A stretch of DNA of 64,000 nt. Origin: Escherichia coli. GTDB taxonomy: Bacteria; Pseudomonadota; Gammaproteobacteria; Enterobacterales; Enterobacteriaceae. The notes beneath the pieces are model-generated. The model made no database searches. It was not told where the DNA came from and was given only the letters and a program-made list of their open reading frames with translations. Position numbers and translations under genes: made by a program. Location: NCBI RefSeq assembly GCF_024298765.1, contig NZ_CP101210.1; one strand, written 5' to 3'. The stretch's first letter is position 1; every line of letters begins with the position of its first letter. Below, one piece after another: positions 934 through 2,591 of the stretch.

Positions 934-1875
934 ATGGCGCACTCACACTCACACACTTCCTCACACCTGCCAGAAGATAATAATGCTCGTCGCTTGTTAT
1001 ATGCTTTCGGCGTGACTGCCGGGTTTATGCTCGTAGAAGTCATTGGTGGTTTTCTTTCCGGTTCTCTGGCATTGCTGGCCGATGCGGGTCATATGTTGAC
1101 CGATACTGCCGCCCTGCTTTTCGCCCTACTCGCAGTGCAATTTTCCCGTCGTCCTCCCACCATTCGCCACACTTTCGGTTGGCTAAGATTGACCACGCTC
1201 GCGGCGTTTGTGAATGCCATCGCCCTGGTGGTGATTACTATTTTGATTGTCTGGGAGGCGATAGAACGCTTCCGCACTCCGCGTCCGGTCGAGGGCGGCA
1301 TGATGATGGCAATTGCCGTGGCTGGGCTGCTGGCAAATATACTTTCTTTCTGGTTACTTCATCACGGCAGCGAAGAGAAAAACCTCAACGTGCGAGCAGC
1401 GGCACTGCATGTGCTCGGGGACCTGCTGGGTTCGGTTGGGGCTATTATTGCCGCGTTGATTATTATCTGGACCGGCTGGACACCTGCTGACCCCATTCTC
1501 TCAATACTGGTGTCGCTTCTGGTTCTGCGTAGCGCGTGGCGACTGTTGAAAGATAGCGTGAATGAATTACTTGAAGGTGCACCGGTATCGCTGGATATCG
1601 CCGAACTGAAGCGTCGTATGTGCCGGGAAATCCCGGAAGTCCGCAATGTGCACCATGTGCATGTATGGATGGTAGGCGAGAAGCCGGTGATGACGCTGCA
1701 TGTGCAGGTGATCCCGCCACACGATCACGATGCCTTGTTAGATCAGATCCAACACTACCTGATGGATCACTATCAGATTGAGCACGCCACTATTCAGATG
1801 GAATATCAACCTTGTCATGGGCCAGACTGCCACCTGAATGAAGGGGTGTCTGGCCATTCACATCATCACCATTAA
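934..1875 (+). CDS. zitB: Zn(II) efflux transporter, cation diffusion facilitator family
   Basis: 313-aa ORF, His-rich N- and C-termini, CDF transmembrane core; conserved position. Confidence 0.93.
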
Positions 1876-2591
1876 TGGGACAGCGCGCGTGAACCTCTTT
1901 CGCGTGCGCTGTTGATCCACATCCGGCTGCCGTTGAGGGCAATAAAGGTCAGGATGATGTACTCCAGAGACATGGCGTAAACGCCCTGAAGTGCAAAAAT
2001 AACGACGCTAATCACGTTAATAATCACCCACAACAGCCAGTTTTCCACATACTTACGCGTCATCAGAATCATTGCCACGATAGATAACACCATCATGCAT
2101 GAATCCCAGAACGGGAAAGCGTCCGGCTGTAGTTCAGGCATCGCAACCTGTAATCCTAATGCTTGCATGATCATGACTGCCACGCGGGTCAAAAATGCAA
2201 ACACCGGATTGATAAATACTGTCATCAGACCAATCGAAACAACGCAAACCGCTAACCAGCTTAGCGCCTTCGGCAATGGCAACCAGCGAATTTTCAACTC
2301 CGCCTCGTTCTGACTGGTTTGTCGCGACCACGCATACCAGCCGTAAATATTCGCGGCAAAGAAAAACACCTGTAATAGCAGGCTGGCATACAGCTGAATC
2401 TGAAAGAAAATAATGCCAAACAAGGTGACGTTGATCAGGCCAAAGAAGTAGTTGCTGATCTTCTCCAGACTGGCAAGGCCAATACACAGCAACCCGGCGA
2501 TCGTGCCTACCGCTTCGATCCATGAGAGATCATAACCGCCTGCACCTATTGGTATATGTACCAGGATATTCTGCACACTAAAAAAATCCAT
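1872..2591 (-). CDS. pnuC: Nicotinamide riboside transporter PnuC
   Basis: 239-aa polytopic membrane ORF directly downstream of nadA; 3' end overlaps the zitB stop by 4 nt (convergent). Confidence 0.93.

Follow-up and report, generated by a model that had tools for sequence, protein, structure and literature searches.

The convergent genes zitB and pnuC of Escherichia coli interlock at their stop codons in an arrangement that appears to have been fixed anciently in the Enterobacteriaceae, and each gene is followed, within the last codons of its partner, by a stable stem-loop that we propose to be the 3' end structure of its own mRNA. Neither stem-loop carries a U-tract, and we suggest that they lie at transcript ends produced by leaky or Rho-type termination. 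Taken as a whole, that is, a genuine and old tail-to-tail junction between zitB and the nadA-pnuC operon together with a 3'-terminal hairpin for each mRNA, we consider this explanation probable, though well short of certain. The junction lies near the beginning of a stretch of 64,000 nucleotides of E. coli DNA, hereafter the window, to which all coordinates refer unless stated otherwise.

The gene zitB occupies positions 934 to 1875 on the plus strand, encodes a zinc exporter of the CDF family (313 amino acids) and ends with TAA at 1873-1875. Opposite to it lies pnuC (1872 to 2591, minus strand), the second gene of the nadA-pnuC operon, which encodes a nicotinamide riboside transporter of 239 amino acids; its TAA is the reverse complement of 1872-1874 and therefore appears as TTA on the plus strand. 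From 1871 to 1876 the window reads A-T-T-A-A-T, the tetramer TTAA (1872 to 1875, not assigned to a strand) belongs to both coding sequences, and the two stop codons have two nucleotides in common. The sequence-only reading had reported this four-nucleotide overlap and a TAA stop on each strand, and the sequence and the list of open reading frames confirm both; it had also allowed that re-annotation might give either gene a different true stop, and no such stop was found. ZitB matches the NCBIfam equivalog NF002923 with 647.8 bits over residues 1-313 of 313, and PnuC matches NF011926 with 465.1 bits over 1-238 of 239. The PGAP annotation of a 100%-identical E. coli genome places the ends of both genes where we do, as does that of K-12 MG1655 (pnuC 783166..783885, plus strand; zitB 783882..784823, minus strand). 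The first 4.5 kb of the window are E. coli chromosome, comprising aroG, ybgS, zitB, pnuC, nadA and a tRNA-Lys/Val cluster; several complete genomes match them with 100% identity and they occur in 5,390 of 5,426 E. coli genomes, and within zitB and pnuC the window differs from MG1655 at 34 sites. An annotation artefact, in which one of the genes truly stops elsewhere and no overlap exists, would have to be reconciled with full-length matches to curated equivalog and subfamily models, with identical ends in PGAP and K-12, and with stop positions that are kept in 81 species through solely stop-preserving substitutions. We regard it as extremely improbable, and mis-annotation of either end was excluded on these grounds.

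Conservation of the junction was followed by fetching the locus from 80 further Enterobacteriaceae species (81 in total) and locating both stops in each. The stops overlap by four nucleotides in 70 species, abut in eight (Buttiauxella and a few others) and overlap by seven nucleotides, as TCAnTGA, in the remaining three; a spacer between zitB and pnuC was seen in none of the 81, despite ZitB identities that go down to 69%. Each of the four stop-compatible tetramers, TTAA, CTAA, TTAG and CTAG, is present among the 70 species with the shorter overlap, from which it appears that the junction has mutated repeatedly, but only in ways that preserve both stops. The constraint on the two stops is asymmetric. 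Past its TAA, the pnuC frame continues as TGG TGA TGA (1863 to 1871, minus strand), the antisense of the C-terminal His codons of ZitB (CAT/CAC), which thus supply back-up stops and keep pnuC from extending into zitB; for zitB, the next in-frame stop lies 35 codons further on.

As a class, this arrangement is ordinary and common. Lillo & Krakauer (2007; PMC2174442) counted 1,890 convergent overlaps in 58 species, with 58 in E. coli, and saw a jump in their number at four nucleotides, with the four-base motifs CTAA, TTAA, CTAG and TTAG, which are explained by the complementarity of stop codons. The terminators of such genes must sit within the coding sequence of the partner, and in E. coli a terminator was found there in 19 of the 58 overlaps, and both terminators in two (PMC2174442). 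With two real opposed genes whose stops interlock as TTAA, zitB and pnuC belong to the four-nucleotide stop/stop class. The overlap is, moreover, already known, since it stands in the reference annotation and the pair has been catalogued as an excludon; by itself it has little significance.

The convergent junction appears to be specific to the Enterobacteriaceae type of arrangement, because at the locus of a PnuC that is 51% identical (L083, 1928-5021) nadA-pnuC is followed by 225 nt and then by aroG, without zitB or ybgS. This suggests an insertion of zitB-ybgS between pnuC and aroG on the way to the Enterobacteriaceae, or else its loss from other lineages. A 43%-identical PnuC, given by the same representative search as L083, lies in an unrelated gene context, and a word-indexed protein search for more distant genomic contexts gave matches from Enterobacteriaceae only. 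We also considered whether the PnuC tail is an unusual extension that arose from reading into a terminator, and rejected this: past the conserved Trp225, distant homologues and the solved N. mucosa protein have tails of comparable length but varying sequence. One record (L061), titled 'Chryseobacterium sp. 18061', contains a typical Enterobacteriaceae nadA-pnuC/zitB locus with a PnuC 90% identical to that of E. coli; the assembly is probably contaminated or mislabelled.

Because the interlocked TTAA leaves no intergenic DNA, both polymerases must transcribe into the coding sequence of the partner, and it is there that the two hairpins lie. The first, HP1 (1879 to 1913, plus strand), begins 3 nt past the zitB stop, inside pnuC codons 227-238, among the final 13 codons of that gene, and has a 15-bp stem and a 5-nt loop. 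Its predicted folding energy is -25.2 kcal/mol (z = -5.5) in the zitB sense, compared with -16.9 in the pnuC sense; the last stem bases are UGUU and the tail, GAUCCACAU, contains no canonical U-tract. We propose that HP1 is the 3' stem-loop of the zitB mRNA and, in the same way, that the second hairpin, HP2 (1820 to 1855, minus strand), is the 3' stem-loop of the nadA-pnuC mRNA. HP2 lies 16 nt past the pnuC stop, inside zitB codons Gly296-His308; its core is GGCCAGAC/GUCUGGCC, an imperfect extension spans 1813-1862, and its tail, CAUGACAAGG, also lacks a U-tract. Its folding energy is -21.9 kcal/mol (z = -3.1) on the minus strand and -24.6 (z = -4.0) on the plus strand, so that, in the present E. 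coli sequence, the zitB sense is the slightly more stable one, which counts against a role in the pnuC mRNA.

Over the 1.66 kb of zitB and pnuC, on both strands, HP1 and HP2 are the two most stable 40-nt segments, HP1 being the most stable of all, and within the 64-kb window both belong to the top 0.1-0.5%. A species-averaged folding scan shows the same two peaks, at about -20 and about -17 kcal/mol, against a background of -4 to -10. HP1 reaches -15 kcal/mol or lower in 69 of the 81 species, compared with 6.9% of interior controls, and HP2 does so in 77 of 81, compared with 14.1%. For an intrinsic terminator we required at least five T in the 8 nt directly after the stem; neither hairpin has a U-tract, and therefore neither qualifies. 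A consensus scan found no canonical intrinsic terminator at the zitB/pnuC junction, a scan of the Buttiauxella locus L046, where UUUU comes after HP1, also found none, and between 1400 and 2400 there was no Rfam match at E <= 1. The earlier statement that the overlap leaves no room for terminators thus holds in that there is neither intergenic space nor a canonical intrinsic terminator, but it misses the conserved stem-loop that lies shortly past each stop, inside the C-terminal codons of the partner. Two further candidates were set aside. A weak sigma-70-like site on the minus strand (1818-1789) was dismissed, one having been found where 4.3 would be expected by chance. The identification of HP1 or HP2 as a REP element or a protein-binding palindrome was rejected by inspection, as the hairpins lie in frame within conserved coding sequence and the strand bias of their G·U pairs points to RNA.

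A G·U pair exists on one strand only, the other strand having an A·C mismatch at that place, and the G·U pairs of the two hairpins are distributed very unevenly. In HP1, 160 G·U cells are found in the zitB sense versus 43 in the pnuC sense, or 86 versus 43 when a nearly invariant closing pair is left out; in HP2 the direction is reversed, with 63 in the pnuC sense versus 13 in the zitB sense, and 16 versus 4 at its Gly/Gly pair. The rule extends to non-synonymous changes: with R235H (PnuC) and G307D/E (ZitB), a U·G pair persists solely in the transcript of the partner. Relative to MG1655, two E. coli polymorphisms fall inside HP1 (1893 A/G and 1902 G/A), turning A-U into G·U and U·G into U-A. 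In the zitB sense pairing is kept with both alleles, whereas in the pnuC sense each allele breaks one pair (1890-1902 in the window, 1893-1899 in MG1655). Given this bias, each hairpin looks suited to the transcript whose gene ends directly upstream, rather than to the open reading frame that hosts it.

Whether the hairpins are selected as structures was judged from covariation, which is stronger for HP2 than for HP1. In both hairpins, the pairing joins third codon positions of the host gene to one another. In HP2, for which 71 gap-free sequences were used (alignment A2), 82.4% of cells are paired, versus 25-49% when the partner is slid; against shuffle and permutation controls, which for both hairpins ignore phylogeny, 71 cells are changed on both sides, where shuffles give 30.6 +/- 4.0, and covariation scores 0.264, versus 0.130 (equalled in 0 of 500 shuffles). 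At the four-fold degenerate third positions of Gly307 and Gly296, pairing is seen in 59 of 68 distinct sequences where 30.8 would be expected (0/20,000 permutations), and five pair types, GC, CG, UG, GU and AU, are found there; a second pair, 305.3 with 298.3, is formed in 57 of 68, against 31.8 expected (0/20,000 permutations). In ten species with a differing ZitB tail (Buttiauxella and relatives, and two 'Pantoea'-labelled loci) entirely different hairpins occupy the same place, an example at the HP2 position being GAGCATGGTC...GACCATGCTC. From this comparison of sequences, HP2 as a selected structure is well supported. For HP1 the corresponding claim is only moderately supported. Across the 81 species 85.6% of its cells are paired, versus 23-63% when slid, but covariation is weak, since column composition, as measured in shuffles, already accounts for 84.5%. 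The conserved PnuC peptide SARERGS(R/H)ALS fixes the non-wobble positions of HP1, and no extra synonymous-site constraint was seen in the last 14 codons of pnuC, whose third-position entropy is 1.08, versus a gene mean of 1.12.

The weak covariation of HP1 would also be expected if nothing but packing were involved. The overlap would then be the closest arrangement that stop complementarity permits, frozen since any change either lengthens ZitB by 35 codons or hits the PnuC back-up stops, the hairpins would arise incidentally from conserved peptides (GP[D/E]C...SGH on the ZitB side, and the PnuC tail), and the overlap would leave expression unaffected. The arms of both hairpins do fall on conserved residues, four-nucleotide convergent overlaps are common and their tetramers explained by stop complementarity (58 convergent overlaps in E. 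coli; PMC2174442), zitB and pnuC are weakly expressed (PMC7373196), and the accessible parts of the Term-seq and SMRT-Cappable-seq supplements hold no 3' ends near the hairpins. A neutral origin is nevertheless difficult to square with the wobble-wobble pairs of HP2, which covary far beyond column composition (59/68 versus 30.8, and 57/68 versus 31.8), with lineages that have other ZitB tails and have evolved other hairpins at the same position, and with a G·U bias opposite to the strand of the host reading frame; two structures from the top 0.5% within 60 nt of the junction are also an unlikely coincidence. We therefore hold it to be somewhat unlikely. In the opposite direction, the argument could be carried further than our preferred reading. 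The C-terminal codons of ZitB and PnuC might be dual-purpose, each set encoding the 3'-end stem-loop of the partner's mRNA and being maintained by compensatory synonymous, and even non-synonymous, changes across the Enterobacteriaceae, so that selection on RNA shapes the tail of the partner protein; the complementary 3' ends of about 100 nt could then couple the expression of NAD salvage and zinc efflux. We put this forward tentatively, and think it less likely than not.

For the preferred reading, mRNA 3'-end stem-loops with leaky or Rho-type termination, we suggest the following course of events. The ribosome would be released at the stop codon, and HP1 or HP2 could fold once it has departed. 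Transcription would end inefficiently; HP1 itself may terminate weakly in the intrinsic manner, and 100-350 nt further on the untranslated, C-rich antisense RNA may be a target for Rho. Exonucleases working 3' to 5' would trim the RNA back to the hairpin and leave a stable 3' end. Once mature, the zitB and pnuC mRNAs would thus have about 100 nt of complementary sequence (roughly 1815-1915), and part of the transcription would read through to yield antisense RNA, chiefly over zitB. Judged by composition alone, a candidate Rho-loading region on the zitB side is a C-rich, G-poor stretch at 1980 to 2109 on the plus strand (zitB-sense RNA, antisense to pnuC), located at +105 to +234 from the zitB stop, with a C/G ratio of 2.1-2.4 in 78-nt windows. 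The corresponding candidate on the pnuC side, judged in the same way, consists of C-rich stretches at 1508 to 1741 on the minus strand (pnuC-sense RNA, antisense to zitB), located at +131 to +364 from the pnuC stop, with C/G 1.4-1.9. Dar & Sorek (2018; PMC6061677) found that Rho-dependent transcripts of E. coli have precise steady-state 3' ends just past stable stem-loops without U-tracts, which shield the RNA against PNPase and RNase II, and that rut sites lie just downstream. We infer from the features described here the use of HP1 and HP2 as actual mRNA 3' ends, a role for Rho and any regulatory consequence. In the part of the Term-seq supplement of Adams (2021) that was accessible, no mapped 3' ends lie near HP1 or HP2 (K-12 78383x-78395x), the only ones in this neighbourhood being at the ybgS terminator, and the accessible part of the SMRT-Cappable-seq supplement likewise has none near the hairpins; expression of the two genes is weak.

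Stem-loops without U-tracts on both strands of a convergent junction would also be the right anatomy for termination by collision. HP1 and HP2 would in that case pause or position the converging polymerases, and head-on collisions backed by trailing polymerases would end both transcripts between the hairpins. According to a preprint by Wang et al. (2022; 10.1101/2022.10.23.513370), bidirectional terminators between convergent E. coli genes are neither intrinsic-like nor Rho-dependent, and they need a nascent-RNA stem-loop that fixes the site of collision. However, collisions should be rare between two genes that are both weakly expressed, and the substantial antisense signal over zitB argues for read-through over efficient termination, so that we think this mode of termination very unlikely here.

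That antisense 3' ends are possible at this junction had also been proposed from the sequence alone, and for full-length mRNAs this is correct: the coding sequences overlap, and the 3' ends of full-length zitB and pnuC mRNAs are therefore necessarily antisense to each other. Published transcriptomes agree with transcript overlap and read-through at the pair. An RNA-seq survey with ExcludonFinder (2025; PMC12288877) includes pnuC-zitB in the 165 convergent excludons that it detected in 50% or more of 58 MG1655 transcriptomes. In the wild-type total RNA of Huang et al. (2020; PMC7373196), zitB has 24.0 RPM in sense and 12.8 RPM in antisense, and pnuC has 40.9 RPM in sense and 2.0 RPM in antisense. 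The same study reports p19-captured dsRNAs over both genes (zitB 45-88 RPM, pnuC 11-70 RPM) and an RNase III cleavage duplex at U00096.2 784002-784026, that is, window 954-978, at the 5' end of zitB (PMC7373196, Table S3); sense reads of zitB go from 24.0 RPM in the wild type to 12.9 and 8.9 RPM in rnc mutants. As a side observation, the strand column of its Table S1c has '+' for zitB, ybgS and gpmA, which are minus-strand genes and carry '-' in Table S1b; the assignment of values to sense and antisense nonetheless looks right.

Calculated per kb, antisense over zitB amounts to about 1/4 of pnuC sense, and antisense over pnuC to about 1/10 of zitB sense. The lower relative antisense over pnuC fits HP1 as the better stop. 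The antisense reads over zitB could come from read-through or from an internal promoter. Likewise, the RNase III site lies about 900 nt from the pnuC stop and implies antisense RNA at that point, which could be due to long read-through or to an internal antisense promoter.

A stronger claim would be that the pair is regulated as an excludon, with nadA-pnuC, derepressed from NadR at low NAD, and zinc-induced zitB antagonising each other through polymerase interference and RNase III cleavage of their complementary 3' regions; strong expression of either gene would then depress the other. The listing of the pair in the E. coli excludome (PMC12288877), a wild-type antisense-to-sense ratio of about 0.5 over zitB, the p19-captured dsRNAs over both genes and the RNase III site within zitB (PMC7373196) are in keeping with this idea, and the convergent mscL-arfA pair offers a precedent for RNase III-dependent cross-talk (PMC10070815). 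Sense reads of zitB do not, however, rise in rnc mutants (PMC7373196). A pair with overlapping coding sequences also counts as an excludon almost automatically once both genes are expressed, and we found no data or other evidence in the literature for reciprocal expression of zitB and pnuC. Moreover, we know of no functional link between NAD salvage and zinc efflux. Mutual regulation of this kind therefore seems unlikely.

Two structures in the immediate neighbourhood deserve mention in their own right. Upstream of zitB, ybgS has an intrinsic terminator on the plus strand at 842-871, with its stem at 842-861 followed by a T-run. Two 3' ends in the accessible Term-seq data, NC_000913.3 784890/784891 on the minus strand (window 867/866), coincide with it (Adams 2021). 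They lie 67-68 nt upstream of zitB, and with a terminator in this position zitB probably either has its own promoter or relies on read-through. The 37-nt spacer between nadA and pnuC contains a perfect palindrome, GCGTAACGTTACGC, at 2604-2617, which on the operon strand is followed by TTTGGGGG; it could be an intra-operon attenuator or stabiliser.

What we add to the overlap already on record is the family-wide reciprocal embedding, in which the proposed 3' stem-loop of each mRNA lies in the last codons of the other gene, together with the wobble covariation of HP2. We consider this to be a modest new detail of a known kind. Beyond that, the locus is a natural test case for the way in which convergent genes of low expression terminate transcription when canonical terminators are lacking, for how much read-through antisense RNA is produced as a result, and for how far the constraints of RNA structure on one strand limit protein evolution on the other.

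Set beside known systems, the geometry and the tetramer of zitB/pnuC are exactly those of the class of Lillo & Krakauer (2007; PMC2174442). The differences are that neither of the structures here is a canonical Rho-independent terminator, that the junction is fixed across a whole family and that structures are found on both sides of it. With intrinsic terminators, HP1 and HP2 share a G+C-rich stem-loop just past the gene. They come closer to the protective stem-loops of Dar & Sorek (PMC6061677), being stable, free of a U-tract and situated soon past the stop, with C-rich sequence downstream; in contrast, those 3' ends and their Rho dependence were measured, whereas HP1 and HP2 are predicted from sequence, and they lie inside the opposite coding sequence, not within a spacer that is left untranslated. 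Bidirectional terminators of the overlapping kind (Ju et al. 2019; Wang et al. 2022) resemble zitB/pnuC in that a convergent pair has stem-loops unlike intrinsic terminators at its boundary, but at zitB/pnuC there are two separate hairpins about 23 nt apart instead of one common element, and expression is low. Among convergent excludons, a concept from Listeria, pnuC-zitB is itself listed as a convergent pair with overlapping 3' transcription (PMC12288877); the functional definition is reciprocal, mutually exclusive expression, and pnuC-zitB qualifies through its listing by transcript overlap. Finally, mscL-arfA (PMC10070815) is also an E. coli tail-to-tail pair, with complementary 3' regions that are processed by RNase III. 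There, experiments demonstrated that antisense RNA acts on the partner, and the stress responses of the pair are functionally linked, whereas the complementarity of zitB and pnuC is known from their sequence and from published reads.
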